From Massalongia carnosa (lineage: Eukaryota), in NCBI GenBank assembly GCA_965645245.1, contig OZ287067.1, forward strand, positions 1,054,001 to 1,118,000: a stretch of DNA of 64,000 nucleotides. The letters run 5' to 3'. How positions within the stretch are numbered: the first letter of the stretch is position 1; every line of letters starts with the position of its first letter. The notes beneath the pieces are model-generated. The model ran no database searches and was not told the origin of the DNA. It saw nothing but the letters and a program-made list of their open reading frames with translations. A program made the translations under genes and the position numbers. Positions 11,409-38,552 of this stretch are shown piece by piece.

Positions 11409-11688
11409 GAGGGGAACACACGATCAGGTTATGGAAAGGCAGATGTAAATATGAGAAGAGAGGAGTTGTACTAGGTGTAAAAGTTTTGCTGATGATTGAT
11501 GAAAAGATGAAAGCTGAGGAAGGAGAGAACACAAGACGTGAGGAGTTCTTATGGCTACGTCTTTAGGTGAGGGAGGAAATTGGTCAATACGTGAAGTTCA
11601 AATCCAAGGAAACTCTCACTTCTTCACTTATACAAAGGAAAATCATCATGAAAGAGCGACTACAGTCAGAAACACACACACACTCGGT

Positions 11689-14600: not shown

Positions 14601-15216
14601 CAGCTTCCCTACCGTGTAGGACTTCGGCCAAAAGGTCTCTCTCTTCCATGGACAACCCATCCCCTACTCGAATCTTTTGCAATCTTTCTGGAGTCAATCG
14701 TGCTCCTCGCGCCATACGTGAGAATTTCGGTATCAACCACCCTGGATATTTTTCGTTGGGCAACCTAGGCATCGCTCTTTCCCTCTCCAAAGCTCTTTCT
14801 CTCCAATCAGGCATCCCCCCAGGCATTGAACCGTCAGAAATCCATCTTTCCGCCGGGCGCACTTTATCACCCTTTCTCTTGTATGCTCCATCAACCCGAA
14901 CAAACTCCCTATCTCTATATCTTGCTTGCGAAACCGAAAATAAATCAAACTTGCGTGATAACCGAAACTCCTGCCCAATATCAAAACTGGGTACAAACTC
15001 CCAATGCGGACTAGTGGATGTTCCAACCCTAAGCCTGCCGCTAAGGATGCAAGCTGCAGCTACTTTGGATTTAGCGTCAGAACGGTGCACTAGGCCTAAT
15101 CGGTTACTTAATCCAAGATTAAATGACGCATTGGGACTAGCGCGCTTTTCTTTCTTCCTCGGGCTATTCGAACTCCACGCCGCAGACAAACCCCCGACAG
15201 CTCGCCTGCATTCTAG
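11689..15216 (-). CDS. pol: Pol of element A (RT-RNaseH-integrase, no chromodomain), reached by -1 frameshift
   Basis: RT motifs DWFSGYDQI, LPQGATNS and FVDD; RNase H GVDSSGKGWG; integrase GLDVV, IVDGG and YHPQANGMIER. The frame is open up to the slippery site at 15216-15222. Confidence 0.93.
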   Translation of the reverse strand, partial: LECRRAVGGLSAAWSSNSPRKKEKRASPNASFNLGLSNRLGLVHRSDAKSKVAAACILSGRLRVGTSTSPHWEFVPSFDIGQEFRLSRKFDLFSVSQARYRDREFVRVDGAYKRKGDKVRPAERWISDGSMPGGMPDWRERALERERAMPRLPNEKYPGWLIPKFSRMARGARLTPERLQKIRVGDGLSMEERDLLAEVLHGREAALAWDFSEMGLVRPEVAPPQEIRTIEHKPWQHPGFAIPKSLQEKTIEMVKERLAIGAIEPCHGHYRNPWYVIGKKEKGKYRLINACTEMNRVTLRDATLPPMADDFAENFAGCSVASLVDWFSGYDQISLDLKSRDYTAFQTALGLMRMTRLPQGATNSVGQFVRINNQILQAQIPHNAEPFVDDVGVKGPKTKYDNEMVAPGIRRFIKEHLQALDEVLADYERAGVTISGAKSQFAMPGIRIVGYICDYDGRHPDTAKVIKIVDWPPCQDVTGARAFIGVCVYYRIWIFEFAIVAEPIYRLFKKKILFVWGVEQQEAMDKLKLALTTSPALRSLDYSIGAGLIILGVDSSGKGWGAVLMQEWEGKRHPSRYESGIWSDTEKSYDATKRECRGVLKALKKVRNYLYGVHFLLETDASVLVAQLNRGGTDLPGALVTRWIAWIQLFDFDVKHVAGKKHTAADGLSRKPPTEDDIREREMEEDIEDFIDAELGSLRVAPISVTDELPLEESYSEKSQQIAAYLTSLQRPAGMGRKEFYKFKKEAMRYCVQGRKLFRRNNKNVPIRRVVDDDKERQEIMEKLHDESGHKGREGTYRRIADRYWWEDLHAHVKAYVRSCERYQMRDPTRQEEALHPTWISLSWAKVGLDVVYMPSREGKKFLVAARDDLSGWVEARAIGNANSLSVARFLWEDVICRHGCFGRLIVDGGPENKDLVEELTARYGIKRVQVSSYHPQANGMIERGHRPIVDALSKMTDGGLGNWVENLPAVLWADRSTVKSTTGLSPYYVTCGSEPVLPIELEVPTWRILPWSEVHTTAELLAMRARQLQRREEDLEEAVHHLQRMRMEGKEEFDDAHLIRAKELKKGDLVLLHDTKRDAVMSTSVKLAYRWLGPYRIHEAKPEKGTYLLAELDGTVLANTFAGNRLKEFHPRQDLTRITTPEHDTEEVNIDPRQHAIPEGWPLAVVVPPISGIA

Positions 15217-18089: not shown

Positions 18090-19737
18090 TTTTCGTTAGT
18101 CGAGACGCGCCGTCGCATAGGCCGCTGCCACCAGTATTGAGGTTTTTGTGGATTGCTTCTTAGACTTCCAATTGGTCACCGCCTTCGGTCTAGAACATCA
18201 AGGTCGAACTCGATCCCACTATCAAACAAAGAAATAAGAAACACTCTAAAGGTTAGTTCACGATCCGTGCCCCGCCCCTTTTGAACTCTTGGCTTTTTCA
18301 GGGTCAAACGCGTTCCCACTCTCTTTTCGTTCGAATCTGCACTCGTTGATCTCTCTAGACTCTTGCTTCTACCGAATAGCCTCAAAAGGTCATCGCACCG
18401 TGGTCGCCAATGAAGAGGGGTAGTCGTGGGTGGTGCATACGTGATGACCTCAAGGAGAGAAGACCGGCAGAAAGCAAACAAGGAACACACGTGAAAACAA
18501 CAAACAGAACGTTGGCGGTGACGACTCGGCCACTCTGACACTGTCACTCGGACACGAATACTGACTCTGAAGGAAAGAAAAATGTTGATTGCCTGTCTGT
18601 CTAGAGGGTGAAACTTCCCCTATCTATAGAAAAATGGGCGCCTTAGCCCCGGAAAAACCTCCCCTCCGCTCCGTCCACACCAATCTCCCCCCCTCTCCTC
18701 AGCACCTGCCCTTGTCCCTATTCACCCTATCACAATATGTCATGAAGTGACTGGGCACCTGCCAGTTAGTTCATCGGACCATCCATCTAGTTCATTGAAT
18801 TATTCAGGGTAACCTTAACTGCTTGAGCGAAGCACTGACCGGCTAGCCGGTCCGAAAGCGACTAAGCTTAATCCGGACCAGTTAGGGCAACGGTAGGTGT
18901 TCCGGCCGTCAATAGTGTCATGGCGATAGTGTCATGCCAGGGACTCGAGGGAAATTGGATCAACAGCTGGATTGAGACTAGTTCGGTTCGCCAGAGTCTT
19001 ATACTCGCCCACGTTTGATTTCTGATTCTTTTCTTCTTGTCGAACGTCTTGTTCATCTAGCTAGACAATCAAGTATCACGTTTGCACCACCTGAATTTCT
19101 ACCTGACCTCGCACCGTGACACTACGTTCGACCAGTCTATTCACCTGATGCATCATCGTCATGTTCATCAACTTTGTCATGAAATGCCTCCGACCTCACC
19201 ACGTGCCTCTATCACGTGCCTTGATCTGATGACTACTCACGGACGTCGTGCCATGCCTTCGGGACCCTCATATCATTCTTCGAATTCGCCGATTACTGAT
19301 CATTAATCAGCCTCGCATTGATGATTTATTCCCGTCTTTCGACTATTATCATGTCTAATAGCTTCGCATTGATGTTTGACATCTCCCGTCTCCTCGCTGA
19401 CCCCATCGTGCTTATTGCCGCTATAATGCCCCTCATTCATCATCGCACTGACTAGACATCATTCGCCGCCACCCTAGAAAGATGAATATGGGAGGACAAA
19501 GATATAAGAAAGAAGTCGAATCATGGAAGTTCTGATTCTTTGTCGAACGTCTTGAATAGCCAACCTAGCCTAGCCTAGATTCATAGCTATAGACTCAATC
19601 AATAAGCTTGACCATCAACCCACCTTGCCTTTGCCCTTGCCCTCGACCTGATTTCGTGACATTACGTTCGACCAACATTCAAAAGTGCCTTCCATAGCAT
19701 TTTCCCTCATCTCCCTTTATCTCATTCCCCCTCAATC

Positions 19738-20880
19738 ATGTCTTCAGCAGAAGAGAACCTCTCCGAGCTGGATAAGCGTATTCGATTCATTCAGGAACGT
19801 CTTCAGGCAGACCCTCAGCAATTCCTGAGTCAAATGGACAACCTAGAAGCCGAAGTAAACCAACTTCGCAACAATGCCAATACCCCTTCTATTTCCGAGC
19901 CCATACCTATCTCAAATCCACCCCCCCCTACCTTGGATCCGCAAATCATGGCCATGATGCAGCTGCTCCTGGCGTCAAAAAACTCCCTCATCCGCTCCGA
20001 AAAGCTCCCGGACATCACGGAGTATGAGGGCGAAGAAGTCAAGCTGGATGCGTGGGAGCAGTCCCTGATTCAAAGAATGCATGTCAACAATGATCGATAC
20101 CCGTTCGATCAAGCCAAAATTGCCTACGCCGAAAGCCGACTCACCATAGGCAAAAAGGCTCATAACCTAATGAATGCGTACAGGGTCGATGGCCTTTGCA
20201 TACTCACCTCATTTGCTGAATGGCGATCAGCCCTCCGCCGCGCATGCGGAAATCCCTACGAGCAGGAGGATGCTCGCAAATACCTTCGCGATATCCTCAA
20301 ACAGGGAAGTAGTAGCTTCGAGGAGTACTACAACCTTTTTGCGCAGAAAAAAGACCGGTCCAAGATGGAAGATGCCAGCCTGATCGATGCCATGAAGGCA
20401 AATGTGAATTATTCAACCCAGACCGCAGCCCTAATGTATAGGGTCCCCGGAACCCAAAGGCAACCAACCACCTTCGACGAGCACGTCACCATGTGGTTGG
20501 AGACAGATCGTGGCCTTCGGCAGATCCGCCACATTGCCCCAAAGGCGAACACCACCACTATCACCCCGACACCGAAAAAGCCAAACCCGTTATCAGCACT
20601 TCCCCCGACAGTCGCTCCCGCTGCCAAAGCACCTGTCGCTTCTCCCGCCTCCCCTGCGCTGCTCATTGGCGACCCCATGGACCTAAGCTCTGCCATGGCA
20701 GCGGTGAAAGGCCAATCGCTCAAAACCGAGGGGGTCCGCAAAATCTGCGAAGACTGGAAGTTGTGTTTCTACTGCAAATTGCAGCATCCAGGGAAGTCAG
20801 CAACTGACTGTCCCAACAAGCGAACCAACCTTCGGAGCATGGAGCTCGAAGCCCCTGATATTGATCAGGGAAAAGCCTAG
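19738..20880 (+). CDS. gag: Gag of element B
   Basis: RSEKLPD motif, PMDLS, and zinc knuckle CFYCKLQHPGKSATDC. Confidence 0.92.
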   Translation: MSSAEENLSELDKRIRFIQERLQADPQQFLSQMDNLEAEVNQLRNNANTPSISEPIPISNPPPPTLDPQIMAMMQLLLASKNSLIRSEKLPDITEYEGEEVKLDAWEQSLIQRMHVNNDRYPFDQAKIAYAESRLTIGKKAHNLMNAYRVDGLCILTSFAEWRSALRRACGNPYEQEDARKYLRDILKQGSSSFEEYYNLFAQKKDRSKMEDASLIDAMKANVNYSTQTAALMYRVPGTQRQPTTFDEHVTMWLETDRGLRQIRHIAPKANTTTITPTPKKPNPLSALPPTVAPAAKAPVASPASPALLIGDPMDLSSAMAAVKGQSLKTEGVRKICEDWKLCFYCKLQHPGKSATDCPNKRTNLRSMELEAPDIDQGKA

Positions 20881-23800
20881 TCTCTGCAAATCGTCGCGTG
20901 CAGGGACTCCCCCCCCTTCTCATTTCCTCATGTTTGATGGCCAGTTTTTCCCCCTCTTTGAGATCCAATACGCGATTTTCCGCAGCCTCCGCTTTGGAGC
21001 TGTTTGAATCAGATAAGACGTTCAGAGACAGTCACATGGTGATGACAGGTATCTTGCGATTATCTAGATCTAGGATTAGAACGTATAATCTAATTGATTG
21101 TGGTGCATCTGGCTTTTCATTCATCGATGAGAAATTTGCGCATACTAACCAAATTCCCCTTCATCTTCTCAAATATCCCCGCCGGCTCGAAGGATTCGAC
21201 GGCCAAAGGGCTCTATCCGGCAATATCACTCATGTGGCCGAAATCACCATGGATCTAGAAGGTCATGTAGAAAAACTCTTTCTATATGTCACCGGGTTAA
21301 AAAATTATCCCATTATCCTGGGCCATCCATGGCTCCGCCGGCATAACGCCATAGCCGATTTTGGGCATAATACGCTCACCTTTGCCTCCCCCTACTGCCT
21401 CACTCACTGTTGCCCCCACCCCGTCAAGCTTCAAGCCGTTGAGGAAGAATTCCTCACCCCAGCCGAGAGTCGAAAAATCTGGGATGAAGAGATCCTCGAA
21501 GACGCCCTAGGAAAAGTTATCAATCAAGACACGTCTATCAGAACGTCGATAACTTCTCTAGAAGAGGGGGAAGAAATTCCCACAATCAAAAATTCCATTC
21601 CTGACAATCCCGTCAAAATCGAGGAATCCATCCCTTTGTTCAAAACCGCGCCGCGCGATTTCACCTTAATCAAACCCGAAATCAATGAACCCGAACCCCA
21701 GCCTCAAAACCCCACCGATGAACCCAGTCGCATTGAAAATGCAATCCAGCAAGGGCTTCCCCCCCCGAAAATCCGATACCGAAGCCCGTCCAAATTGCGG
21801 ACATCCACCCAAAGACGTGCTCATCAAGCAGCACGCAAAACCACCCCGCAGATGAATGTCTGCGAAATCGGAGCTATCTCCTTCAATCGACTGACTCGGA
21901 AGAAAAACCACGATAGTTTCGCCCTGTCCATGAAAGAAATTGACCTCTTTCTAGGAAAAACCAACCCCGAACCTCTAGTAATGAAAGCCTCACCTAGTTC
22001 AGCCCCCGATTTGATCGAAAAAGCCAAAAAACCCAGCCCAGCCTACCAACCATTGCCATCTCGAGCAAGCCCGCACGAGAAAGAAATCCACCTAGCCTTA
22101 TTTAAGATGAATAAGGCCCTAACCCTAGCCACCGCCGTGACTCGTGAAGAGTTAGACGCTTACCGAGAAAGTAAGAACGTCGACCCAGCCCCCCTTCTGC
22201 CCAAGCAATACCACGAATTCCTAGATGTCTTCTCGAAGAAGAAATCCGAAGACTTGCCCCCCCGCCGTCCCTACGATCATGCCATAAACCTGAAAGAAGG
22301 TACGCAGGCCCCTAGTCAGGCCCTGTATGGTATGAGTCGTACCGAAATCGAGGAGCTCCGCCGCTACCTCGACGAAAATCTAGCCAAGGGATTTATTCGG
22401 GCTAGTCGCTCCCACGCCGCCTCCCCGGTGATGTTCGTGAAAAAGCCAGGTGGGGGACTTCGATTTTGCGTGGATTATCGTGCTCTGAATGCCATCACGA
22501 TTAAGGATCGCTATCCGCTGCCCTTGATCGCCGAGACCCTGCACCAATTAATCAAAGCCAAGATATTCACCAAGATAGACATCATCGCCGCCTTCAATAT
22601 GCTCCGCATACGAGAAGGAGACGAAGAACTCACCGCTTTTCGCACTCGTTTCGGCCTTTTCGAGTCCTTGGTCCTACCCTTCGGCCTATGCAACGGGCCC
22701 GCCTCATTTCAGCACTTCATCAACGATACGCTTCACGAGTATCTTGCTGACTTTTGCACTGCGTACCTAGATGATATCCTCATCTACAGTGACAATGAGC
22801 TGGAGCACGAGGTCCACGTCAAAAAAATCCTGTCTCGACTCCGAGATGCAGGCCTGCAAGCCGACATCACCAAGTGCAAGTTCCATGTCACCGAAATTGC
22901 ATACCTAGGGATGATCGTGACCACCGAAGGGATAAAAATGGACCCGGCCAAGGTGGAAACCGTCGTCAATTGGCCAAACCTCGTCAATGTGAAAGATGTG
23001 CAAAGCTTTCTGGGTTTTGCTAACTTTTATAGACGATTCGTGTATGGGTTTAGCGACATAGCTGGCCCCCTAACCAACCTGACCAAGAAGGAGACGGAAT
23101 TCCTGTGGACTGACAAATGCCAATTGGCATTCGAAATGCTGAAAAAAGCTTTCACCTCCGATGTCATTCTCAGGCATTTCGACCCCGATCGTCCCATCAT
23201 CGTCGAAACCGATGCCTCCGACTATGTTTCGGGGGGCATTCTTTCTCAATACGACGATGATGGGATACTTCACCCCGTCGCCTACTTCTCAAAGAAGCAC
23301 AATCCCGCCGAGTGCAACTACGAGATCTATGACAAAGAACTGATGGCAATCGTTCGATGTTTTGAAGAATGGCGACCCGAACTAGAAGGATCTGCCTTCC
23401 CCATCAGCGTCATATCCGACCACAAAAACCTGGAGTATTTTGCCTCCACCAAGCAGCTCAGCCGTCGCCAAGCTAGATGGAGCGAATTTCTCTCTCGATT
23501 TGACTTCAAGATAGTCTATCGACCAGGAAAAGCCGGAGGAAAACCGGACGCTCTAACTCGTCGATCGGGAGATCTTCCTAAAGAAGGGGATGATACGGAC
23601 GAGCGAAGGAAATTTCAACACCAAACCATTTTGAAAACCGAAAACCTGGATGAGGAAGTCGCAAAAAGTTATTTGCGATCCATTCTTCTGGCACCAGCTT
23701 TCCTAGATGATGCAGATATCGAAGAAGCAGAACCTCAGCTAGATGAGGACCTCATCGATCCCGATGAGGATATCTCCACGGAGCTCCTCTGGGAACAAGC

Positions 23801-25325
23801 CCTGACACGAGACCAATTCGCCCCCGAAGTCCTGGAAGCCCTTCGTAATAACGAGAGGCATCACAATCGAATCCAATTAGCCGAATGCGAAGATAGGGAC
23901 GGTATCTTGTATTTTCGAAACAAGAAATACGTACCTCGATCCGATCGTCTGAGGCTTCGTATCATTCAACTCGCTCACGATAGCGTCGCCGGCGGACATC
24001 CGGGCCGTTCCAAATGCCATGAGTTGGTAAATCGATCCTACTGGTGGCCCAGCATGCATCAGTCCATCAAGCGATTTATCCGAAACTGCCACACTTGCAG
24101 AAGATCAAAACCATCCCGCCAGCGCTATCAGGGCTGGCTACGCCCACTCCCCCCCCCCGAGCGCAGATGGCGGGATATTTCCATGGATTATGTAGGCCCC
24201 CTGACCCCCAGCACCTTCATGGGAATCACTTATCGCTACATCTTGGTGGTTATAGATCGCCTGTCCAAGATGCGACATTTCATTCCTATCACGTCCATGG
24301 AAGTTGAAGACGCCGCCGATGCGTTCTATCAGAATGTCTGGAAACTACATGGGCTTCCCGAAGCCATGGTTTCTGATCGTGGCCCCCAATTCGTCTCCGA
24401 TTTCTGGCAGCTCATGTGCAAGAGGCTGAAAATCGACGCCAATCTATCCACCGGATACCACCCGGAGACCGACGGGCAGACCGAGCGAGCCAACGCCACC
24501 ATGGAGCACTACCTAAGGGCTTATGTCAACTACATGCAGGATGACTGGGCACAATGGCTTCCTGGCGCCGAATTCGCCAGCAATAACACCGATTCATCTA
24601 GTATCCTAGCCTCCCCCTTCCTAGCCAACTTCGGGCAACATCCCCGCATGGGATTTGAACCGGAGGAACCCCTGCCGCAAGACCTAACCGCTCAGGGCAG
24701 AGCAAACCTAGTTGCAGCCAATCAGTTCGTGAATAAGATGCAGGATATCGACACTCATCTTCGAGACGAAATGCTGATGGCCCAAGCTTCGTACGAAGCA
24801 ACTGCAAATGCTAACCGACGTCCCTGCCCCCGCTATTTCGTTGGCGATATGGTGTGGCTAAGCACCAGAAATATCCAAACCGCTCGCCCCACAGTCAAGC
24901 TGGATGACCGAAATATCGGCCCCTACCGCGTCAGCAAGGTGTTTTCCAACCCCTTGATCGTACAGCTGGAGCTTCCCGATACCGTCAAAATCCATCCCGT
25001 CTTTCACGTCAATCTGTTGCAGCATGATGCCAATGACCCCCTCCCCGGGCAGAGACCGGAGCCTAGAGACCCCGTCATCGCCGAAGATGGCCAACGAGAA
25101 TGGTATGTCAATAGGGTATTGAATTCCAAGCTCGACCGACGTTTTCAACCCCCGCTTCTGAAATACCTAGTGGATTGGGAAGGGCATCCTTCCACCTGGG
25201 AGCCTTTCAACTATCTCATCAATTGTCAGCAAGTCATAGACGAATACCACCAAGCCTATCCCAATGCGGCCGGCCCTCATCTAAACCCCTGTCAAATTCC
25301 CCGTTGCCAATGCCACGAGGCATAG
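20868..25325 (+). CDS. pol: Pol of element B (PR-RT-RH-IN-chromodomain), -1 frame relative to gag
   Basis: LIDCGASG, LRFCVDY, YLDD, ETDASD, HHCC, GYHPETDGQTER, and chromodomain EWYVNRVLNS..KYLVDWEG. Confidence 0.95.
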   Translation, partial: GKSLVSANRRVQGLPPLLISSCLMASFSPSLRSNTRFSAASALELFESDKTFRDSHMVMTGILRLSRSRIRTYNLIDCGASGFSFIDEKFAHTNQIPLHLLKYPRRLEGFDGQRALSGNITHVAEITMDLEGHVEKLFLYVTGLKNYPIILGHPWLRRHNAIADFGHNTLTFASPYCLTHCCPHPVKLQAVEEEFLTPAESRKIWDEEILEDALGKVINQDTSIRTSITSLEEGEEIPTIKNSIPDNPVKIEESIPLFKTAPRDFTLIKPEINEPEPQPQNPTDEPSRIENAIQQGLPPPKIRYRSPSKLRTSTQRRAHQAARKTTPQMNVCEIGAISFNRLTRKKNHDSFALSMKEIDLFLGKTNPEPLVMKASPSSAPDLIEKAKKPSPAYQPLPSRASPHEKEIHLALFKMNKALTLATAVTREELDAYRESKNVDPAPLLPKQYHEFLDVFSKKKSEDLPPRRPYDHAINLKEGTQAPSQALYGMSRTEIEELRRYLDENLAKGFIRASRSHAASPVMFVKKPGGGLRFCVDYRALNAITIKDRYPLPLIAETLHQLIKAKIFTKIDIIAAFNMLRIREGDEELTAFRTRFGLFESLVLPFGLCNGPASFQHFINDTLHEYLADFCTAYLDDILIYSDNELEHEVHVKKILSRLRDAGLQADITKCKFHVTEIAYLGMIVTTEGIKMDPAKVETVVNWPNLVNVKDVQSFLGFANFYRRFVYGFSDIAGPLTNLTKKETEFLWTDKCQLAFEMLKKAFTSDVILRHFDPDRPIIVETDASDYVSGGILSQYDDDGILHPVAYFSKKHNPAECNYEIYDKELMAIVRCFEEWRPELEGSAFPISVISDHKNLEYFASTKQLSRRQARWSEFLSRFDFKIVYRPGKAGGKPDALTRRSGDLPKEGDDTDERRKFQHQTILKTENLDEEVAKSYLRSILLAPAFLDDADIEEAEPQLDEDLIDPDEDISTELLWEQALTRDQFAPEVLEALRNNERHHNRIQLAECEDRDGILYFRNKKYVPRSDRLRLRIIQLAHDSVAGGHPGRSKCHELVNRSYWWPSMHQSIKRFIRNCHTCRRSKPSRQRYQGWLRPLPPPERRWRDISMDYVGPLTPSTFMGITYRYILVVIDRLSKMRHFIPITSMEVEDAADAFYQNVWKLHGLPEAMVSDRGPQFVSDFWQLMCKRLKIDANLSTGYHPETDGQTERANATMEHYLRAYVNYMQDDWAQWLPGAEFASNNTDSSSILASPFLANFGQHPRMGFEPEEPLPQDLTAQGRANLVAANQFVNKMQDIDTHLRDEMLMAQASYEATANANRRPCPRYFVGDMVWLSTRNIQTARPTVKLDDRNIGPYRVSKVFSNPLIVQLELPDTVKIHPVFHVNLLQHDANDPLPGQRPEPRDPVIAEDGQREWYVNRVLNSKLDRRFQPPLLKYLVDWEGHPSTWEPFNYLINCQQVIDEYHQAYPNAAGPHLNPCQIPRCQCHEA

Positions 25326-27997
25326 ATAAGATGGCATCGCAGGAGCTCTGCCTTGAAGGGGGAGCTACTGTCATGAAATGCCTCCGACCTCACCACGTGC
25401 CTCTATCACGTGCCTTGATCTGATGACTACTCACGGACGTCGTGCCATGCCTTCGGGACCCTCATATCATTCTTCGAATTCGCCGATTACTGATCATTAA
25501 TCAGCCTCGCATTGATGATTTATTCCCGTCTTTCGACTATTATCATGTCTAATAGCTTCGCATTGATGTTTGACATCTCCCGTCTCCTCGCTGACCCCAT
25601 CGTGCTTATTGCCGCTATAATGCCCCTCATTCATCATCGCACTGACTAGACATCATTCGCCGCCACCCTAGAAAGATGAATATGGGAGGACAAAGATATA
25701 AGAAAGAAGTCGAATCATGGAAGTTCTGATTCTTTGTCGAACGTCTTGAATAGCCAACCTAGCCTAGCCTAGATTCATAGCTATAGACTCAATCAATAAG
25801 CTTGACCATCAACCCACCTTGCCTTTGCCCTTGCCCTCGACCTGATTTCGTGACAAACTTCGATCCTTTCATCTCCGTTTTCAACGTCGACGAGCTTAGC
25901 ACTGTCGTGCAGCAACAGTCACAGGCATGACTCGACTTCCTTCTTCGTGTCATCAACTTCTCGATCAATGCTCAGGAAGTCATCATCAATTTAAAGATTG
26001 ACAAAGCATTCGCATTATCTTTTCTTGAGCAGGCTAACGTCACTCTGTTCGAGAACGCAATCATTATGATCGCTGAACAAGCAGTCATGAACGAACTCCG
26101 CATCAATTTGATCGATGCCTCGCAATCTAAATCGCATCGTTTTATCAAGCATTCGAACTCATCTTTCTTTGATGACGATAAGACAGAACTGAGAGAATGA
26201 ATGACACAACTTCGAATTAAACTGAATATCAACAAGAATCACTATTCTATCGAACAAAGCAAGCTCGCTTATGCATTAAGTTGCTTGAAGAAGAGAGCAT
26301 TGAAACAACTGCAGTCGTATCTGAAAAAAGATGAAAACATCGCTCTTGCTGATATGAAAGCGTTCTATATCAAATTGCAGTTGATCTTCGATGATCTCGA
26401 TAGAAAAACAATCGCACAAAGAAAACTGCGACAGCTTCGACAAAAGAACAAAGAATTCTACTTATATCTTTTCGATTATCAACGCCTTGTTCTCGACATC
26501 GACTTCGACGATGAAGTCAAACGTTTTATTCTTCTGAACGATCTCAGCGATGAGTTAAAATTCGCTCTAATCACAGTGAATCTATTCATCTCGTTGAACG
26601 ACATCATTCAAATTCTTCAGAAAATCGACAATCGATTTCGCTTCGTTCAGGCCTTCATTCGCAAATCATTCTCATATGATTCATCTCGCTCTTTCTTCGT
26701 TTCGTTCACTTCGATCATTAAAATTTCTTTCATTTTCAGCACTTCTGTTCCTCGCCTCGCTTTCATCTCATCTGCAAACACGAATGTCATGAATCTGTCG
26801 ATTTTCAGGCGTCGCGATTTCATCATCTCGACGAAAAGATCACGTCGCATGAACGAAGAATTATGCATGTACTGCGAAGAATCAGAACATTTCGTCAATT
26901 TCTGTTCAATCTTCAAGAAAAAATCTAAAGTGAGAACATATGAATTGAATACGATGACTTCGAAAAAAAAGAAAAAAGTTCAATCTTCGATTTAAGTCGC
27001 GATCTGTAAGAGTCAGACCTGGCGATTATCAGACACCAGGCCTAGGGATATGTGACAATGTGAAGACACTAATGATTTGCTATACTAATATACTAAAAGA
27101 AGTATGTAGGTAAAGCGGAAGACTAATCGTTGAAGATTGCATCTCCCTCGAGCAGCCTCCTTATATACCCGGACCGAAGCCCTTGACCCTCTGGGCCCTT
27201 GATACTGTAACTATCTTGACCGCCCATTACTCCTACCGGATAAGCCGGCTAAACACTCTGCTGACTGCATCGTGGACACTGTGCTGACTGTATCGTAGAC
27301 ACTGTGCTGACTGTATCGTGGACACTATGCTGACTGTATCGTACCATCCGCTCACTAATCGTACGAGAATCCTCGTATATCTCGATCGCTCGTACTATAC
27401 TCTCGGCAGTAGATACCAGCCGCGTAACGCAGACCAACTGCTTTTCCATATGACTAAGCCTAGCCGTAGAACTAAGCCCCGCTTAGTTAGCTTAGCCCTT
27501 ATTCCTTCTATGCCCTGACAATTGCCTCCTCTCCTATAGTGCTGGTCCTCCAGCACGTACAGTACTCGAACGCGGAAGGGAGTGTGTAGGGACGTGATAG
27601 AAGATGTCGTGTAGATAGCAAGTTTGTTGTGTAGAAAGCGCGAATACCTGGCGCTTGACGTAGGTAGATGTAAATATCACTAGCTTCTCGGTAATGCTGG
27701 GTCGCCGATGCCGCTCCAAGCGCTAGAAGTAGCGGAGAAGGGGACGATGGCGATTATCAGCAGAGATCCGAGCTCGGTAACGCTAGCGTTGGTGGTTTGT
27801 TGATTTAGGTGAAGACGGTGAGGAGTACGAGACTGTTGTCTCCGAAAGCTCCTCCAGCGAGAGTCTCAAGGAAGAAAAGGGTGATGAGGAGTCGGACGAG
27901 GAAGTAGAAGATACTGATGGTGATGATGAGGTGCCGGACGAGAAAGCAGAAGGTTCCGATGGTGATGAGATGGCGAATAAGAAGTGTTTCGCTGGAT

Positions 27998-30900: not shown

Positions 30901-31804
30901 TTTTGGTCACCTTATTCAATCCTCGATAGTCAACGCAGAGGCGCAGAGTACCGTCCTTCTTAGGCACAAATAGTATTGGTGCACCTGCAGAACTGGTGGA
31001 GTGCCGGATCCAACCCTTCGCCAGGGCGTCGTCAAGATATTCCCGAAGAGTCTTAAGCTCCGTATTCGATAAGTTGTATAAAGGACCATAAGGTGGATCA
31101 CCGCCTTCTAAATCGATAGCGTGGTCACAGTCCTTGTGCGTAGCTAATTGATTGGCTCTGTCCTTAGAAAAAACATCCTGGAATTCAGCAAATTCCACAG
31201 GTATCCCCTGCGTTTCGTTGGTGTTCCGGCTGTTGTTCTCATCAACAGCGCCAACATTAACAGGTTGTCTTTCGGAAGAAGGTGCAATGGGTTGAGCCAC
31301 TATAGCATAGAGTGGTGCCCCGGAATCCAGGGTCTTCGCAAACTGTTTAGGCTTGCACAACTCGAACATATCAGACTGAAAGCCATAACGCCAGCGCTTC
31401 GCTCCATAATCGATTACGATACCCAGCTGTTTGAGACCAGGGAGACCCAACACCAAGTCAGGGCCCTGTTTGTCAATTGCGTAAAACACGCTGGTAAAGG
31501 TGCGCTGTCGTTCCCAAGTATCCTCGAGAGCCATTACTACCTCATAAGCTTCATAGCAGTAAACCTCTTTACCATCCATGAATTGAGGAGCAGGTAGTTC
31601 GCTTTCAATAGGTCTAAGATCTGAAGCGACGGCGAATCCCTGATTAATCACATTAATCTCGGCTGCTCCATCAAGCAACACTGTCGCCGGGTATTTTTGG
31701 CCTCCGCTCGTTATAGTCCCCTTAGGAATTAGGCTTGGCTCGCTTTCTACTGATCTTTTCCCTCCATCGGCTGGCGAGCTTTTCGTGGAGGTTTGGCTTT
31801 TCCC
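27998..31804 (-). CDS. pol: Pol of element D1 (PR-RT-RH-IN-chromodomain)
   Basis: LRLCVDY, YLDD, ETDASD, AFHPQTDGQTER, and chromodomain EWEVEEI..YKVKWVGY. The -1 frame is open from G GGA AAA at 31804-31798. Confidence 0.95.
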   Translation of the reverse strand, partial: GKSQTSTKSSPADGGKRSVESEPSLIPKGTITSGGQKYPATVLLDGAAEINVINQGFAVASDLRPIESELPAPQFMDGKEVYCYEAYEVVMALEDTWERQRTFTSVFYAIDKQGPDLVLGLPGLKQLGIVIDYGAKRWRYGFQSDMFELCKPKQFAKTLDSGAPLYAIVAQPIAPSSERQPVNVGAVDENNSRNTNETQGIPVEFAEFQDVFSKDRANQLATHKDCDHAIDLEGGDPPYGPLYNLSNTELKTLREYLDDALAKGWIRHSTSSAGAPILFVPKKDGTLRLCVDYRGLNKVTKKNRHPLPLITQILDQLNGCSYFTKMDLRDAYHRLRIRKGDEWKTAFRSRYGHYEYMVMPFGLANAPATFQAYINKALSGIVDVFCVVYLDDILVFSKDRTSHVEHVKEVLRRLRKHDLYVNLKKCEFFAAAVEYLGFIISSDGISMDPRRVETVRDWPALQSFRDIQVFLGFANFYRRFIRHYSQITRPLTDMLKGMQAGIKRGTFYLTAEGAEAFSKLKEAFQGAPILVHFDPELLIRLETDASDFGISGIISQLQKDGQWHPVAFYSRKMIPAERNYETHDQELLAIVMCFKHWRHYLEGSLHPVEVLTDHNNLRGFMNIKVLSGRQARWAMKLAAYDFVIMHRSGKTNPADAPSRRPDYQSINTEVTRLLPTLQKKLSKIDSLCVGYTPGIRTVLAALRYDLRSKIASSGIEPLENLEGETSKSITSLDEESDTFEVGLTQCIPRAVAVALSDEEKPLESVSKSVLELIKALQGKDAFVSSRRETVAKSLKRKGGRSPEAIWTIDSNDLLNHRGRIYVPDEESIRAELLRRHHDDELAGHFGAEKTAELLTRKYYWKGLNKTVKKYTESCDICQRTKAPRHRPYGVMQSLPRPSGPWKEITMDFITGFPPSKRFGRVYDSCLVIVDRYTKMALYIPVTKKINAVDLAEILFESVVLQFGAPEGIVSDRGSVFTSEYWSEICFHLKTKRRLSTAFHPQTDGQTERQNQTLEHYLRVYCTDNQSNWVALLPLAQFVYQVSYQSTLGCSPFYCMYGYNPEIRYEVGDDIAVERVPAAKERVKQLHEFRYSLEARWKSVSEAQTKYYNKKHLEKDFNEGDLVMLSAKNLKQKRPSKKLSHKFLGPFRILEAVGKQAYRLALPTTYRIHPVFHVSYLEPYKRRDGQEHIPFLPPPEIINDEQEWEVEEIIGRRSEKGEIFYKVKWVGYPEEYDEWVPEKDLDGALELKQDFDAKPKAKRRRIKKLQVTR

Positions 31805-32988
31805 GACTTTGCGACGGCGTTCACACCGTGCTTCGGCTCCTTGTCGTCTTTAGGAGGGTTGGGACACTTGTTGGCGTAGTGACCCTGTTCTCCGCAGCGA
31901 TAACATGTCACCTCGTCGGTACTTTCCTTTGTCTCAGCATGCTTTCTTTTCTGACCCCTTTTACCGTCTTTCGTAGGTTTTGGTTTGTCAGTGTCCTTTA
32001 TCTCCTCGTTCCTCTTATCTCTATGTGATTTAGTGCGAGGGGGGTGAGAACCATTTGGACGCTCATGCTTCGACGTCGTTAAGACATCGTTTTCTCTTTT
32101 CTGATTGTTTTCCAGCCTACTGGCCAGAGTCACCAGAGCTTCTCTAGTCCTTGGAATATTCTGATAGTTGCCTATAGCTGCTCTAATAGACGGCCGCAAC
32201 TTAGTAAACAGATGAGTCGCTCTTTGTTCTTCGGTATAGGAGGGCAACTGGTCCTCGAGGCTACTCAAGTGCGCCTCGAAAGCTCTTACCGTTTGCTTCT
32301 CTCCTTGCTTGGCTTCGGCAAATAATTGGGCCATATGCAGACCTCGATTAACTGGGTCCTCGACAATATTTAACAAGAATTTCAAGTACTCTTCGAAGGT
32401 ATAATTGTGCATTTCACCGTCTGCCTCATATCGATGCCAAGCTTCCTTAGGCTCCCCTTCCAGCGATTGCATTGCGAAAGCGATCTTGGATTCATCATCT
32501 GGGAAGTCCTCTTTTGCCACGCGAAACGCCACTCTGCAGTTCCGCTCATAATCCAGATGTTCCTTGACCGTTTTTCCATGATAGGGACTGACTTTCTCGG
32601 GTCTAGCAGCGCGTCTCCTGTAAACAACAACAGGTACTGACTGGCTACTCGTCATCTCTACATCGTCGTCAGAACGAGGGTTAATGGCTCCTCTCATTAC
32701 CGGTTCCTTGGATGATCCGGTAGGGTTTGGAGGTTTCGAAGGCTTTTGAGTTTGTTCTTGCAGTTGCTCAATACTGGCTTTCAAATTCCTCAGACGTACT
32801 TCCTTCTTAAGTTCGCTACGCCTGCGCTCAGCTTGCGCTATCTGTTCGTCCAACGTCAGGGGTTGAATGGGTTCGACTACTTTTTCCATTGGGGTCAGGG
32901 CTCCTCTTCCAGGGCCCTCAGAATCCGAAAGTTCTTCGATCCGCTCCTCCGGCATCATGGTATCAGAGGCAACTTCTTGCGCGGACAT
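31747..32988 (-). CDS. gag: Gag of element D1
   Basis: CCHC knuckle CYRCGEQGHYANKC. Confidence 0.92.
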   Translation of the reverse strand: MSAQEVASDTMMPEERIEELSDSEGPGRGALTPMEKVVEPIQPLTLDEQIAQAERRRSELKKEVRLRNLKASIEQLQEQTQKPSKPPNPTGSSKEPVMRGAINPRSDDDVEMTSSQSVPVVVYRRRAARPEKVSPYHGKTVKEHLDYERNCRVAFRVAKEDFPDDESKIAFAMQSLEGEPKEAWHRYEADGEMHNYTFEEYLKFLLNIVEDPVNRGLHMAQLFAEAKQGEKQTVRAFEAHLSSLEDQLPSYTEEQRATHLFTKLRPSIRAAIGNYQNIPRTREALVTLASRLENNQKRENDVLTTSKHERPNGSHPPRTKSHRDKRNEEIKDTDKPKPTKDGKRGQKRKHAETKESTDEVTCYRCGEQGHYANKCPNPPKDDKEPKHGVNAVAKSGKAKPPRKARQPMEGKDQ

Positions 32989-35900
32989 GGCGGGACGATA
33001 GTGTATAGAAGGTGTATAAATGTGTCAACGGATCGTCACTCCTTGAAGGATTGAACGATTAGAATTGTAAGAGTCAGACCTGGCGATTATCAGACACCAG
33101 GCCTAGGGATATGTGACAATGTGAAGACACTAATGATTTGCTATACTAATATACTAAAAGAAGTATGTAGGTAAAGCGGAAGACTAATCGTTGAAGATTG
33201 CATCTCCCTCGAGCAGCCTCCTTATATACCCGGACCGAAGCCCTTGACCCTCTGGGCCCTTGATACTGTAACTATCTTGACCGCCCATTACTCCTACCGG
33301 ATAAGCCGGCTAAACACTCTGCTGACTGCATCGTGGACACTGTGCTGACTGTATCGTAGACACTGTGCTGACTGTATCGTGGACACTATGCTGACTGTAT
33401 CGTACCATCCGCTCACTAATCGTACGAGAATCCTCGTATATCTCGATCGCTCGTACTATACTCTCGGCAGTAGATACCAGCCGCGTAACGCAGACCAACT
33501 GCTTTTCCATATGACTAAGCCTAGCCGTAGAACTAAGCCCCGCTTAGTTAGCTTAGCCCTTATTCCTTCTATGCCCTGACACGATCGAAGACAAAAAGAA
33601 ATTATTTCGATTTCGACATTTTTCTTGTTCAAAGAATCTCTGTTCGAAGAAAATCTGAATGAAAAACATTTGATTGTGTCTTTTGTTGTTTTCATAAAAA
33701 CAATCAAAATCAAGACTTATGCATTGATTGATTGTGAAGCATCTGAATTTGTCTTTGTTGATTTCTCGTTCGCGCATCATCATCGCATACTTCTCGTTCT
33801 CATGAAGAAATCTCGTATTCTTGAATTCGCAAACGATCGTTTCGTGTCGTCTGAAAAGTTTACTCATCTCGCACGTTTGAATCTTGACATCGTTTCGCAT
33901 TTCGAATTCGCTAATCTTCTCGTTATCAGTCTCGATCATTATCTCATCGTTCTCGACATTAAATGACTGCAAATTCACGACGTCAGCATACGATGAATCA
34001 CGAATTCTCTCACTTTCAATTCATCTTACTGTCGTCAACACTGTTTTGACAACTTCGAGTCAAACACGATCATCGACATAATCAATGTTTCAGAATTTCG
34101 CGTTGAAAAATCCCTCGTCGTTGAAAGTAACGTTAATCTCGACTCGACAGCGACAATCATCGAAGACTTTAGTTTCGAAGGGATTAGATTTGACAGACTC
34201 GATCGATTAAATCGACGCGTCAATTCAGCGATCGTCATTCTCTCGTCTATCTTGCTCGCGATCTTGCTCGTTTCGTTCTCGTTCGTCTCGTTCTCGCTCA
34301 TTTCGACGTAGATCAATAAGAATTCATCATTGAGCATATGTATGATAAAAGCAGTTCTCTTTACTCGTTTAGCGAAGAAGAAGAAGTGTGAACTCTTTAT
34401 CGTGAACATGCGAAATATTGAACATGTCTTGAATCTCAAGTCGTAAATTGATCCTGCTATCGTGTTGTCGTCGAAATATCATGAATTTCTTGATGTATTT
34501 TTCAAGAAAGAAGTTGATAAACTTTCAAAGCGACGTAGTCATGATCATAAAATTTCGTTGATGAAAGAAAAGAAATTCACGTATGACTCGTTGTATGACA
34601 TGAATCGAGATGAACTGTTAATTCTACAGAAGTATCTGACGAAAAACCTGAAAAAGAATTTTATTCGATTCAATTCTTCTTCTGCTGCGTTCTCGATATT
34701 GTTCGTTAAAAAATCAGACGAAAATCTGCGTTTTTGTGTTGATTACAAAGCATTAAATGCGATAACGATCAAGAACAAATATTCTTTATTTTTGATCAGA
34801 GAAACCTTGAATCGCTTGAATAAAGCAGTTATCTTTATTAAGCTGAATATTGTCGCGATCTTCAATCGTTTTCGTGTAGCTCATGAAAAGAAATGAAAAA
34901 TTGTTTTTCGAACACGTTATGAATTATATGAATATCTTGTCATGTCGTTTGAACTCTGCGAAGCCTCATTCTCGTTTCAAAAGTACATTAATGATGTGCT
35001 TCGTGAATATTTAAACATTTTTTGCATCGCGTACATCGACGACATATTGATTTACAGCAACTTTTTAAAAGAACACAAGAATCATGTGAAAAAAATACTG
35101 ATGATTCTAGAAAAAGTCGAATTACAACTTGACATCTCGAAATGTGAATTTCATGTCACGAAGATCATTTATTTAAAAATGATAATATTCAAAGACGACA
35201 TAAGAATGAATTTCAAGAAAATTGAGATTATTCAGAATTGAAACACTTCAAAGAACTTAAAAGACGTGCAAATCTTCATAAAATTCGCGAATTTTTATCG
35301 TCGATTTGTCAAGAGATTCTTTCGCATAACTGAATCATTGACAATTATGTCAAAAAAGAAGACATCATTCGTATGAATCAATGACTGCGTCAATGCTTTC
35401 GAGAATCTGAAGTCTATGTTTATTAGTAACATTGTTCTGCTGCATTTTGACCTCGATAAGAAAAGCGTGATTGAAACTGACTCTTCTGATTATGTCAATG
35501 TCGAAGTTCTCTCGCAATATGATGACGATGAAGTCTTTCGCCTCGTAGTCTTTTTCTCGCGACGTTTGTTCTCGACGAAGTGCAATTACGAGATTTATGA
35601 TAAAGAGCTATTAGTCATAATACGTGTCTTCGAGAAATGAAGATCAGAACTTCAAGAAGCTGCATACTCGATTAAAGTAATCACTGATCATAAAAATCTG
35701 AAGTATTTCATCATCATCAAGCAGTTAAGTAAACGACAGACTCGTTGAGCAGAATATCTCTCATGTTTCGACTTCAAAATCACGTATCGACTCGACAAAT
35801 TAAGCGAAAAACCTAACGCTTTGACTAGAAGATCAGGAGATCTTTCTAAAGAGAAAAACGTGAGACTGAAACATCAGAATCAGATGATATTAAAATCGCA

Positions 35901-38552
35901 TAATTTTGAACTTCATGCTAACAACGTGCCTCGTGTGACTGACGTGTTCGATTCTGAATCTGACATCGCGATTGAATCATCGAATCTCGTCTCTGTCCTC
36001 GACTCGAAAGAGAAATCTATAGACGAACTCATTGATCTAAGATATGAACATGACCTCACGTCTAACAAAATCCTGATTCTTCTTCGAAACGATGCTCGAC
36101 ACAGCAAGAACATCACTTTAATCGAATGTGAAAACAGAAATGAAAGACTATACTACAAGAAAAGGTTATACGTTCCTGATTGACATGAACTAAAAATGAG
36201 ACTATGCAAAGAATATCACGACAGTTCAGTCGTCGATCATTCAGACAGATCTAAAACATTTAATCTAATGACGCGAGATTACTACTGATCTCGATATCAT
36301 CAATTCATTGCTCGCTATGTTCAACACTGTCATACATGCTCTCGCAGTAAAGCTTTTCATCATGTTAAATACGAAGTGTTGAAATCTTTGCTCGTTATTC
36401 AACAACGATGAAAGAACATATTCATGAATTTCGTTATCGATTTACTCGAAAGTAGCGATAAGAACGCTGTGCTAAGCGTTGTTTGTCGATTAATCAAAAT
36501 GAAACATTTCATTTCGTGCAGAAAGATCATCGACGCTAAAACCTTAGCAAGACTATACGTTGAACATATCTGAAAACTTCATGATCTATCTGACTTCATT
36601 GTGTCGAATCGAGAAGATCAGTTCATCGCTGATTTCTGAAAAGCATTATGTGAACGACTGAAAATCAACAGTCGATTATTCACGTCGTTTCACTCGAAGA
36701 TCGACGATCAAACGAAACGATATAACGCGATCATGAAACAATATCTCAGAAGCTACGTATTCTATCAACAAGATGACTGAATCGATTGACTGTCAATGAC
36801 TGAATTCGTTAGCAATAACTTCGACTTCGAAACAACGTTCGTTAACCCGTTTCTTGCTAATTATGATTTTCATTCTCGTCTTGATTTTGAACCTGTTCAT
36901 CGCGACTTTCTCAATGCGCAAGTTATTAGCGTCGACGAATTCGTCTTCAAAATGCAAAGTATCAGTGAACATCTCGATGACGAAATGCGTTTAACTCAAG
37001 CGCGTTATGAAGCGTCTGCTAACGCAAACAGAATCTCGACTTTCACGTTTCATGTCGACGACGAGATTTGACTGAACGCTAGACATATAAAGATCAAACG
37101 ATCATCACGAAAGCTGAATTGAAAAAAGCTTGAAAGATTCACTATAAAGAAAATTGTTAACAAGTACGCATACGAGTTGAATTTTCTCGTCTTCATGAAC
37201 GTTCATTCTGTGTTTCATGTTTCTTTTTTAGAACCTGTCTTTCAACATTTTCACGTCGATCTCGTATTCGCTTCTTCTTTTTCTGTCGATGTTGAAGGTG
37301 AAACAGAATGAAAGATCGAGGAAATTTTGAACTCTCGTTTCTTTCGAAAACGTTTACAGTATTTAATCAAGTGAACTGATTGAAACGCATTCGACTGAAT
37401 CGAAGTTAAGAACGTCATTCACTGCTTCGATTTACTGAAAGACTTTCATCGACTGAGATTTAACAAGTCTGATAATTCTCGCGAAGCTCGAACCTAAAAG
37501 AAGAGCTGCTGTCATGAAGTGACTGAGCATCTGTCAGTTAGTTCATCGAATCATTCATCTAGTTCATTGAATCATTCAGAATAATCTTAACTGCTTGAGC
37601 GAAGCACTGATCGACTAGTCGATTCGAAAGCGATTAAGCTTAATCCGAATCAGTTAGAGCAACGATAGGTGTTCCGATCGTCAATAGTGTCATGACGATA
37701 GTGTCATGTCAGGGACTCGAGGAAAATTGGATCAACAGCTAGATTGGGACTAGTTCGGTTCGCCAGAGTCTTATACTCGCCCACGTTTGATTTCTGATTC
37801 TTTTCTCCTTGTCGAACGTCTTGTCCACCTAGCTAGACAATCAAGTATCACGTTTGCATCACCTGAATTCCTACCTGACCTCGCACCGTGACAAGATACA
37901 CTCTTGCTCAAGCCTCATCACGTAACAACGATGTCAATAAATCTCGATTCGATCGTCTCAAATCAATCAGTGATCGCGATGAACGTCACATCATAAGAAC
38001 TGCACGTCTCGAGCTCAAAATAATCTACAAAAAGCTGATGAAAAAGATCGAGATCAAATTTCATCGCAAAATCATCTATCGAGTTTTCAAAGAATATGAC
38101 ATCATTAATTGATTGATCAAAAAGCGATCTTTATTCATTCTCGAAATGACTGCGAAAAGATATGCATGATGCTGAAAGCGACGAGACTGAACTTATGACG
38201 AATGAAAACTTTATATTTGAAGCGACGAATGTTCGATAATGTGACGAGGCGGCAACGGGGGCCTATTCAGGTGGTGAAGGTGGTGGCATTGCTAGCTATG
38301 ACTATACTAGATAGACAAGACGAACACAAGGAAGAAAGCATCAATTGCTGCAGAGATTTTCCATGTAACTCCCGGAACCCATTTCCTTACCTGAATGCGG
38401 TTAGCTCCCCACTAAGGCTAACGCGATACCTAAAACATTTAGCGTGTCGGGAGGTATCGCTTAGCAGAGCATCTCGCGCTCACACCATGACAGTAGCTCC
38501 CCCTTCAAGGCCTGCTTCCACGCAGGCTTTATACCTTCAGGACGGTGTGAGC

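Follow-up and report, generated by a model that had tools for sequence, protein, structure and literature searches.

A CpC-directed, RIP-like mutation signature concentrated in one Starship-like element of the Massalongia carnosa genome

Structure of the region

The window, i.e., the whole stretch of 64,000 nucleotides that was analysed (1..64000, + strand), is located inside a 203,181-bp Starship-like element (G000:C1:928,462-1,131,642). Its central part contains a Gypsy element on the + strand, hereafter referred to as C: the 5′ LTR (18738..19121) is followed by a leader (19122..19174), the gag region (25856..27004), the pol region (33582..37509) and the 3′ LTR (37510..37893). Two young, unmutated Gypsy elements are nested in C. 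One is D (19175..25855, +), a chromodomain Gypsy with identical LTRs and open gag and pol frames, in whose target duplication the C leader ends; the other is G (27005..33581, −). The preliminary description assigned the signature to the interval 18738..37893 as a whole, but only 5,898 of these 19,156 bp belong to C, while the other 13,258 bp are D and G, which are outside the signature. A third unmutated Gypsy element, B (10398..18734, −), lies at the left junction of C.

Three Tc1/mariner relics, all on the + strand, are outside this interval. They are relic 1 (8633..9996; a relative of it, L061, gives a DDE_3 match), relic 2, into which C was inserted, in three pieces (10142..10396, 37894..38239 and 44092..44857; its relative L088 matches HTH_Tnp_Tc3_2 and DDE_3), and relic 3 in two pieces (52756..53431 and 60053..60736). 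The window also carries two cargo genes of the Starship on the + strand: an open PNP-NACHT-ankyrin NLR gene (45431..49423), 97.3-99.2% identical to its counterparts in four named lichen metagenome-assembled genomes (MAGs), and a fatty-acid desaturase gene (61154..62533), 93.5-99.8% identical to those of the same four MAGs.

The order of several events can be read from the junctions. The 5-bp target duplication of G shows two changes of the CC/GG type in each copy, which places this insertion after the mutagenesis, and B was inserted after C, because its 4-bp target duplication overlaps the first base of C. A further copy of G at 53432-60052 (98.7% identical), D, and three D-like copies (L146, L151 and L154-155) are all within the Starship and all unmutated. 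An ongoing RIP (repeat-induced point mutation) limited to this region is ruled out by these linked, near-identical young repeats.

Context of the mutations

The signature is real, and it is visible without any external reference, both between the two LTRs of C and between the Tc1 relics. An alignment of 384 LTR sites contains 32 differences, all of them transitions and none transversions: 29 changes are at the 5′ C of CC (or the 3′ G of GG), one is at CpT and two are at CpA. Both LTR examples that had been quoted for this bias are present in the alignment. Relics 2 and 3 differ by 61 transitions and 4 transversions, with CpC changed at 17/34, CpT at 37/160, CpA at 4/178 and CpG at 3/139 sites.

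For the interior of C, an unmutated natural copy (L032) served as the reference. The comparison gave 704 C>T changes, 49 T>C changes and 19 transversions. Over 5,065 columns, C>T changes occupied 514/612 CpC (84%), 159/640 CpT (25%), 21/640 CpA (3%) and 10/602 CpG (2%) sites on both strands, and this bias was statistically significant (chi-square p about 1e-292). Five diverged unmutated copies treated in the same way as controls gave rates of 0.036-0.054 in every context; a sixth control copy was 99.8% identical. Thus, the CpC>TpC (GpG>GpA) bias and the sparing of CpG reported from inspection hold for C, and in C and the Tc1 relics it is CpC, rather than CpA or CpG, that ranks first. The picture of CpC as the target was incomplete, however: CpT clearly ranks second among the targets, and CpA escapes as much as CpG does.

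The mutations were distributed over both coding regions: CpC was changed at 135/155 sites in the gag region and at 379/457 sites in the pol region, where CpT was changed at 131/490 sites. In the pol region, both strands were targeted (CpC 227/291 on the + strand and 150/163 on the − strand), and all three codon positions were affected (64/90 CpC at codon position 1 in C), by which selection on codons is ruled out as the cause. Every TGG codon for Trp there (20/20) had become TGA, as had been noticed. Among trinucleotides, the rates were 98% for CCA, 96% for CCG, 80% for CCT, 55% for CCC and 48% for CTA. The target choice is set by the 3′ base (C >> T >> A = G), a purine at +2 helps, and the 5′ base has little effect. 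The second C was mostly unmutated (CCA 5/170; CCG 3/152), and TCA (9/195) and TCG (1/186) were spared. The abundance of TCGA claimed for C and all three relics was found in C (17.6-20.0/kb) and in relics 2 and 3 (11.8-20.2/kb), but relic 1 showed only 8.1/kb, as compared with 4.0-7.9/kb in the unmutated elements.

Only repeats were mutated, and they are of several classes (Gypsy, Copia-type, Tc1 and the captain); single-copy cargo was spared, its frames being open and 97-99% conserved. The ends of the repeats were also spared. The 5′ LTR of C is lightly mutated with its outer end unaffected (0/12, 2/18 and 6/13 sites per 150 bp), the 3′ LTR is mutated in its inner half with its outer end mostly spared, and relic 1 has a CC/GG observed-to-expected ratio (o/e) of 0.26 in its interior, whereas its inverted ends are spared.

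Classical RIP indices are blind to this signature, as had been predicted. None of 74 CC-depleted analysis windows was RIP-positive (mean TpA/ApT 0.45; substrate index 1.40), and the Neurospora-type CpA>TpA preference was not found in C, given its CpA count above. Since the products are TpC/GpA instead of TpA, TpA-based indices shift in the wrong direction. The prevalence of RIP in lichen fungi may consequently be under-counted, because index-based surveys score CpC-mutated DNA as un-RIPped, and genomes called RIP-negative by TpA indices may hide a CpC-type defence.

The Starship and its cargo

The captain of the Starship (L126:6460-8023, +) is located at the 5′ start and points inward; it is CpC-mutated and interrupted. 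Relative to an adjacent paralog with 83% identity, it was changed at 44/202 CpC, 12/219 CpA and 6/194 CpG sites. The paralog carries the DUF3435 assignment (Pfam E 5e-4, below the cut-off; Atlas 0.91, 179/256 features) and matches host captains in tblastn at E 1e-6. By inspection, both termini of the Starship show TA tracts; an inverted motif of 8 bp follows immediately inward, and there are related subterminal repeats. A DUF3723 gene, the NLR and ankyrin proteins were found among its accessory and cargo genes, and genes of these kinds are associated with Starships.

For four cargo genes, proteins with 93.5-99.8% identity occur in lichen fungi belonging to two orders. These genes cluster at ≥90% with MAGs that bear the names Pseudevernia, Xanthomendoza, Seirophora and cf. 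Caloplaca, where the matching genes partly have consecutive locus tags. In the protein collection, 4/6 cargo genes and 0/2 host core genes cluster with named MAGs, although the MAGs could share a contaminant; for two other cargo genes, the collection gave no named relatives, and one more was absent from it. The desaturase shows only 64-70% identity to the six ordinary homologues compared. Private amino-acid changes in the cargo proteins did not indicate a donor.

Distribution of the signature in the genome

The CpC-mutated DNA is concentrated in this one Starship. CC-depleted analysis windows accounted for 74/492 inside it versus 2/1,484 outside, where about 0.6 Mb of 52 Mb was read. A conserved motif served as the genome-wide probe (a hand-picked TCGA-rich 13-mer and a random degenerate-word search were unusable): the CC-mutated integrase motif occurred in 3/15 cases inside versus 2/503 outside, i.e., the mutated motif is enriched about 380-fold in the Starship, which makes up 0.4% of the genome. 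Two further mutated families have their sole match above 77% within the Starship, and their other matches are probably unmutated, judging from identity and one overlap (L030).

No CpC bias was detected in the 29 other copies of the C family (29/30 family copies are without it). One of them, the host copy L121, shows a weak CpA bias (27/491 versus 12/1,389 at other sites). Outside the Starship, a patch at G000:C3:468 kb is truly CpC-mutated (34/54), with a captain match 155 kb upstream, and C22 and C6 hold faint CC-poor relics. A motif match on C19 failed confirmation: its CC o/e was 0.90, and the loci compared included no relative. Older Tc1 relatives outside the Starship have CC o/e values of 0.83-1.14. 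Apart from RIP, the mutated C and the C3 patch diverge from unmutated host copies by only about 2% and 1.5%, respectively, and therefore the writer of the signature and the host shared transposon families. Identity within unmutated LTR pairs is mostly 99-100%, which marks these elements as very young. In other public assemblies, the signature is extensive (116/120 loci), and in the JAABU*/JAABVA assemblies CpG is the second target after CpC.

DNA methyltransferases of the host genome

PF00145 matches were found at four loci, two of which fall among RID-like homologues. The genome encodes DIM-2 (with BAH and methylase domains), two RID-like genes termed RID-A and RID-B, and one further methyltransferase that we take to be DNMT5-like. 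RID-A is 65-66% identical to Parmeliaceae RIDs and 52-54% to Teloschistales RIDs. RID-B is short and divergent, with a long branch in a quick tree (89/204 domains kept); its catalytic motifs are present, and its predicted target-recognition segment differs. No close relative of RID-B was found in the PDB, the best match being M.HhaI (E 7.5e-12), and the protein clusters of its relatives yielded no taxa through which it might be linked to the signature.

A RID/DIM-2-type system of shifted specificity had been proposed from the sequence. The signature indeed behaves as a context-shifted RIP, and the genes to inspect are present, but the genome's own RID/DIM-2 is not established as its writer. 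Studying these enzymes may mean studying the wrong ones, because nearly all of the signature lies on a single Starship, with cargo apparently common to lichen orders and with young linked repeats that are unmutated, and because copies elsewhere in the host show either no context bias or a weak CpA bias.

Origin of the signature

We consider it probable that a RIP variant with a preference for CpC produced the signature in a previous lichen-fungus host, from which the Starship imported it. On the model of RIP as already described, the C in repeats recognised by homology would be marked during sexual cycles by a C5-methyltransferase-like enzyme of the RID family whose target-recognition loop is altered, and deamination would then fix T. 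The mutations would have been made while the 203-kb Starship resided in another lichen fungus with this variant; it may then have entered the present host, where RIP appears slight (any visible trace is weak and of the CpA type). Young retroelements of that host would afterwards have inserted into the Starship without becoming mutated. A more specific version, in which lichen fungi have a family of CpC RIP variants written by the RID-B clade via a changed recognition loop and the signature is an imported foreign stamp, is tentative and seems rather doubtful.

If the imported origin holds, the context of RIP would act like a stamp in a passport, given a rule that differs between lineages: it would order transfer, mutagenesis and later retroelement invasion, and the host history of a Starship could be read in a single genome. 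The clean CpC rule offers a natural specificity variant for RID or loop swaps, which bears on what sets the sequence preference of RIP.

The strongest alternative, which we regard as unlikely, is that RID-A or RID-B of the host lineage wrote the signature recently, after which RIP lapsed (e.g., with rarer sex), transposons expanded and old relics persisted chiefly in dispensable regions, this Starship among them. The two paralogs with catalytic motifs, the long-branched RID-B with its differing recognition segment, the closeness of the mutated copies to host families, the C3 patch with the faint relics on C22 and C6, and the youth of the unmutated LTR pairs agree with it. Against it are the motif enrichment in so small a part of the genome, the older Tc1 relatives with ordinary CC content and the visible host bias, which is of the CpA type in L121. 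Moreover, host copies that diverge from their closest sibling by 1.5-2.5% showed no CpC bias, and neither did the LTR pairs that have transversions (L031 and L038), whereas the C pair has none.

Long-term CpC methylation of repeats (DIM-2 or MIP-like) with slow spontaneous deamination, rather than sexual-stage RIP, is improbable. The host has DIM-2, and methylation-driven C>T change is accepted for CpG bias in fungal repeats (in the part of PMC4352252 drawn on here). Nevertheless, the 84% saturation is accompanied by 0 transversions in 384-bp LTRs and a background divergence of about 2%, CpG, the usual methylation target, is unaffected, and young repeats of the same region lack the signature. 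Still less probable is editing of retroelement cDNA by an APOBEC3G-like deaminase, or UV damage at dipyrimidines in an exposed lichen. CC and CT are dipyrimidines, and APOBEC3G prefers CC; however, APOBEC3G and UV mainly mutate the 3′ C, and APOBEC mutagenesis shows a strand or retro-element bias. Here the 5′ C is changed, TCA and TCG are spared, both strands are mutated, the changes extend to DNA transposons and to the captain gene, and the borders track the repeats, so that context and strand data contradict both agents. A sequencing, assembly or reference-choice artefact has a negligible probability: run X2 may be the source sample of the assembly, but contigs of X2, X3 and X4 (two studies) carry the mutated letters only (longest pieces supporting mutated C: 1,462 bp in X2 and 1,434 bp in X3), and the reference-free comparisons and the flat controls contradict it as well.

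Comparison with known systems

The signature resembles the RIP of Neurospora crassa and other Pezizomycotina in that it is a one-way C:G>T:A change on both strands, confined to repeats, governed by the 3′ neighbour and near saturation, with unique genes untouched and a genome that encodes RID and DIM-2. It differs from Neurospora RIP in that CpC and then CpT are the targets in C and CpA is spared. A kingdom-wide survey of 1,239 genomes arrives at a CpA preference common to RIP-like defences (PMC12543289). Lineage-specific dinucleotide rules, as here, are known from the CpT- or CpG-biased signatures of Magnaporthe, Botrytis and Sclerotinia and of Aspergillus, Tuber, rusts and Microbotryum; the secondary CpT component is a likeness to them, and Botrytis and Sclerotinia likewise have two RID/Masc1 copies. 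In Table 2 of PMC4352252, only CpA, CpT and CpG are predominant or secondary, and its main text does not contain the term CpC. RIPCAL includes CpC among its categories, with no CpC-dominant case reported in the portion of PMC2621366 used here. We found no CpC-dominant RIP in the literature, although older context surveys or supplementary k-mer tables could hold such a case. Clutterbuck's context survey of 2011 reportedly covered 49 genomes.

Among lichen fungi, RIP-affected repeats have been reported in Xanthoria and Cladonia rangiformis, including on a Starship (PMC13486527, PMC12542154); in the parts of these reports used here, the evidence is large-RIP-region calls or GC content, with no dinucleotide context. 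The element itself is like known Starships in its captain at the start, DUF3723 gene, cargo that includes an NLR, termini with short inverted sequences, nested transposons and, if the MAGs do not share a contaminant, near-identical cargo in distant hosts (PMC13004909, in part). The part of PMC13004909 drawn on here makes no use of RIP context as a record of a previous host, which the foreign signature of the passengers would provide. Unlike known Starships, the present one carries passengers whose mutation signature does not match that of the host itself.

Mutation spectrum of element C

The Gypsy element C, at 18738..37893 of the window, had been described as carrying a RIP-like (repeat-induced point mutation) bias, in which the 5′ C of CC becomes T (GG>GA on the other strand) and CpG is spared. 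The bias was borne out, and the interval only partly: C occupies 5,898 bp of these 19,156 bp, and the remainder consists of the elements D and G, whose CC/GG content is normal. The two LTRs of C show 32/384 differences, all of which are transitions, and 29 fall on the first C of a CC or the second G of a GG. L032, a natural unmutated copy, served as the reference; over 5,065 aligned columns the interior of C departs from it by 704 C>T changes, 49 T>C changes and 19 transversions, and the changes per available site are CpC 514/612, CpT 159/640, CpA 21/640 and CpG 10/602. The +2 base also has an effect (CCA 167/170, CCG 146/152, CCT 133/167, CCC 68/123, CTA 57/118); the 5′ base has nearly none, NCC being mutated at 75–90%. 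In five diverged unmutated copies, examined as a control, the rates were 0.036–0.054 across all four contexts.

The mutations of C are found on both strands and at every codon position, the load declines toward the element ends, and, as the preliminary description had it, Trp codons read TGA (20 of 20). The Tc1 relics agree with this: between relics 2 and 3 there are 61 transitions and 4 transversions, whose contexts rank in the same order, and a nearby Copia-type relic compared with locus L030 gives CpC 197/229 and CpT 95/178. None of 74 CC-depleted windows was positive by the classical RIP indices, which thus under-call the signature as anticipated. The mutated sequence of C is matched exactly, in pieces of up to 1,462 bp, by Logan contigs of the public runs X2, X3 and X4, of which X2 may be the assembly's source sample and X4 carries mutated C at a depth of 2–7.

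One-way transitions, restriction to repeats over transposon classes, strand symmetry and a 3′-neighbour context are the hallmarks of RIP. Since the CpC signature displays one-way transitions, repeat restriction, strand symmetry and 3′-neighbour context, we are highly confident that it is real and RIP-like; a RID-family protein would read the base 3′ of the target C. Slow methylation decay is opposed by the saturation of the changes with zero transversions between the C LTRs. APOBEC3G-like editing and UV, by their usual target rules, are ruled out by the 5′ C target, the sparing of TpCpA and TpCpG, and the mutated DNA transposons.

Order of insertions

The window is a transposon nest in which a Tc1/mariner relic was invaded by C, and B, D, G, E (38237–44092) and F (53432–60052) were inserted later. 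The target duplication of G carries two CC/GG-type changes relative to L032 in both copies. None of the elements G, D, B, E and F is itself mutated, though several have near-identical linked copies. From these two features it follows that RIP action on the window DNA had stopped before G, D, B, E and F arrived. A small inverted-repeat element with 78-bp arms (87%) lies at 44935–45296, directly upstream of the NLR gene.

A Starship-like element

The window (contig C1:1,054,001–1,118,000) lies within a larger region with CC-depleted DNA. At either end of this block (C1:928,462 and 1,131,642) is a TA tract, immediately internal to which lies an 8-bp inverted motif, and the block spans 203,181 bp. 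Its first gene is an inward-pointing tyrosine recombinase (captain), accessory genes (DUF3723, NLR and others) lie inside, and cohesin and other core genes begin just outside. Based on these ends, the captain and the gene content on either side, the 203-kb block has, as judged from its sequence, the anatomy of a Starship. The inward captain is CpC-mutated (CpC 44/202 versus CpA 12/219 and CpG 6/194), is interrupted by a CC-depleted element, and stands back to back with a paralog, 83% identical, in one TA microsatellite (L126:2851–8023, corresponding to C1:924.9–930.0 kb). This left-pointing paralog is unmutated and matches DUF3435; its own element may end at C1:888 kb, where there is a related subterminal repeat. 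The 52.2-Mb assembly (25 contigs) contains 513 Gypsy integrase motifs in unmutated form and 69 exon-level DUF3435 matches, which suggests that retroelements multiplied recently and that Starships are numerous.

Distribution in the genome

Along the walked part of contig C1, CC-depleted blocks are limited to roughly 929–1,115 kb. CC/GG o/e below 0.35 was found in 74 of 492 windows inside the element versus 2 of 1,484 in about 0.6 Mb sampled outside, one of the two being an AT-rich tract. Nineteen arbitrarily placed 10-kb stretches plus one motif locus gave 0/386 CC-poor windows; three from the same sampling belong to L126, picked because it was already flagged. Among the best 30 own-genome matches of C pol, CpC mutation is confined to the window copy; of the remaining 29, one also sits in the 203-kb region. 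Two further mutated families have their sole match above 77% inside the element. The conserved integrase motif occurs genome-wide in the CC-mutated form five times (three inside) and in the unmutated form 513 times (12 inside; Fisher p 1.9e-4, post hoc, with a probe modelled on C).

A motif match at 468 kb of contig C3 (467,900–469,300) is a genuine CpC-mutated Gypsy piece (CpC 34/54; other contexts 2–4 per ~60), which is outside the C1 Starship, adjoins an LTR that is shared with that Starship, and lies 155 kb past a DUF3435 (captain) match. A match on C19 was not confirmed as CpC-mutated. A few faint, decayed, CC-poor and TCGA/TCA-rich stretches on C22 (L039:6200–6700, L048:2700–3300) and C6 (L035:4100–4600) could be older relics of the CpC process. 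The C3 patch and these relics disfavour strict confinement to the C1 Starship. A signature that originated in the host lineage, by a process since lapsed, is the main alternative, and we consider it unlikely; CpC bias is absent in host copies at most 2.5% from their nearest sibling. CpA is the canonical RIP context, and L121 (C3:1,297,909–1,302,395), picked from 29 loci, has a weak CpA>TpA bias on both strands (27/491 versus 12/1,389; p 1.5e-8). Milder CpA excesses are seen at L110 (11/559) and L120 (12/563).

Cargo genes and host methyltransferases

The cargo desaturase is 99.8% identical to a protein of the MAG named Pseudevernia consocians, and 98.3%, 97.6% and 93.5% to those of Xanthomendoza sp., cf. 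Caloplaca sp. and Seirophora villosa, versus 64–70% to six ordinary homologues compared. The MAG proteins share its read-through intron-like insert; in the window gene (61154–62533) this comprises 22 codons with intron-like ends and is identical in the Xanthomendoza protein. The cargo NLR is 97.3–99.2% identical to the same four MAGs, and it clusters with them, as do a 291-aa frame and a DUF7580 gene, partly under consecutive locus tags. For two other cargo genes no named relatives were found in the collection, and one more is absent from it. Of four host core genes, two are represented there and fall in clusters that lack any named protein, and the other two are absent. Also among the cargo is a frame at 7901–8473 that matches the Pfam family HlyIII (PAQR-type).

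Four host genes match the PF00145 profile: DIM-2 (C6), the long RID-A (C15), the short RID-B (C17:565.7–567.5 kb, L052/L057) and a gene on C18 that we take to be DNMT5-like. Their homologues come from lichen-forming Lecanoromycetes. A quick tree places RID-A beside proteins of Usnea, Alectoria, Lecanora and Pseudocyphellaria, and RID-B, on a long branch, with a Heterodermia protein in a clade that also includes about 20 unnamed proteins. The two RIDs are 38% identical in the catalytic half, and they diverge in the stretch that precedes motif IX, presumably the target-recognition region of C5 methyltransferases. The suspected RID/DIM-2-type genes are therefore present, and the host enzyme comparison yielded no link between RID-B and CpC.

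RID-A is 65–66% identical to its Alectoria and Usnea counterparts (81% to each other) and 52–54% to Teloschistales RIDs (65–71% among themselves), which places the host in a third lineage. MAGs named from separate genera carry near-identical cargo, and on this gene-level likeness the element would travel between fungal hosts; a contaminating fungus shared by the MAGs could also account for it. Starship-borne transfer of transposons is documented in the available part of PMC13004909. Taken as a whole, the best reading is that the RIP-like CpC mutations would have been written in an earlier host and then imported on the Starship, which we regard as probable.

Signature in other assemblies and comparison with known RIP

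In run X5 (another study, organism label "C"), 1,581 contigs align to element C; the alignment tables list changes in either direction, and the loose ends have the mutated form. On these tables we take the family to be present there in numerous mutated copies. Public metagenome assemblies, scanned with the motif, yielded at least 120 loci, and 116 of 120 among the matches listed have CC/GG o/e below 0.35 in their flanks, motif excluded. Contigs JAABU*/JAABVA (L179–L298), which may represent one study and one species, make up 77 of 80 loci among the matches listed and are often depleted across all 6 kb, with CC o/e near 0. Their rates in the 12 pairs shown, scored against already mutated references, are CpC 0.81–0.95, CpG 0.29–0.45, CpT 0.13–0.27 and CpA 0.06–0.15. 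Since CpG stands above CpT, their second target differs from that of the window.

No case of CpC-dominant RIP was found in the literature covered. The available portions of PMC5602860, PMC12910237, PMC7882544 and two preprints contain nothing on CpC, and those of the lichen RIP reports PMC13486527, PMC12542154 and PMC13535494 give no dinucleotide context. In the accessible text of PMC4352252, PMC2621366, PMC8959702, PMC5555474 and PMC12543289, the contexts given are CpA, CpT or CpG only, the last stating a shared CpA preference. The CpC-dominant signature of the window is unlike these published contexts, as far as the excerpts extend.
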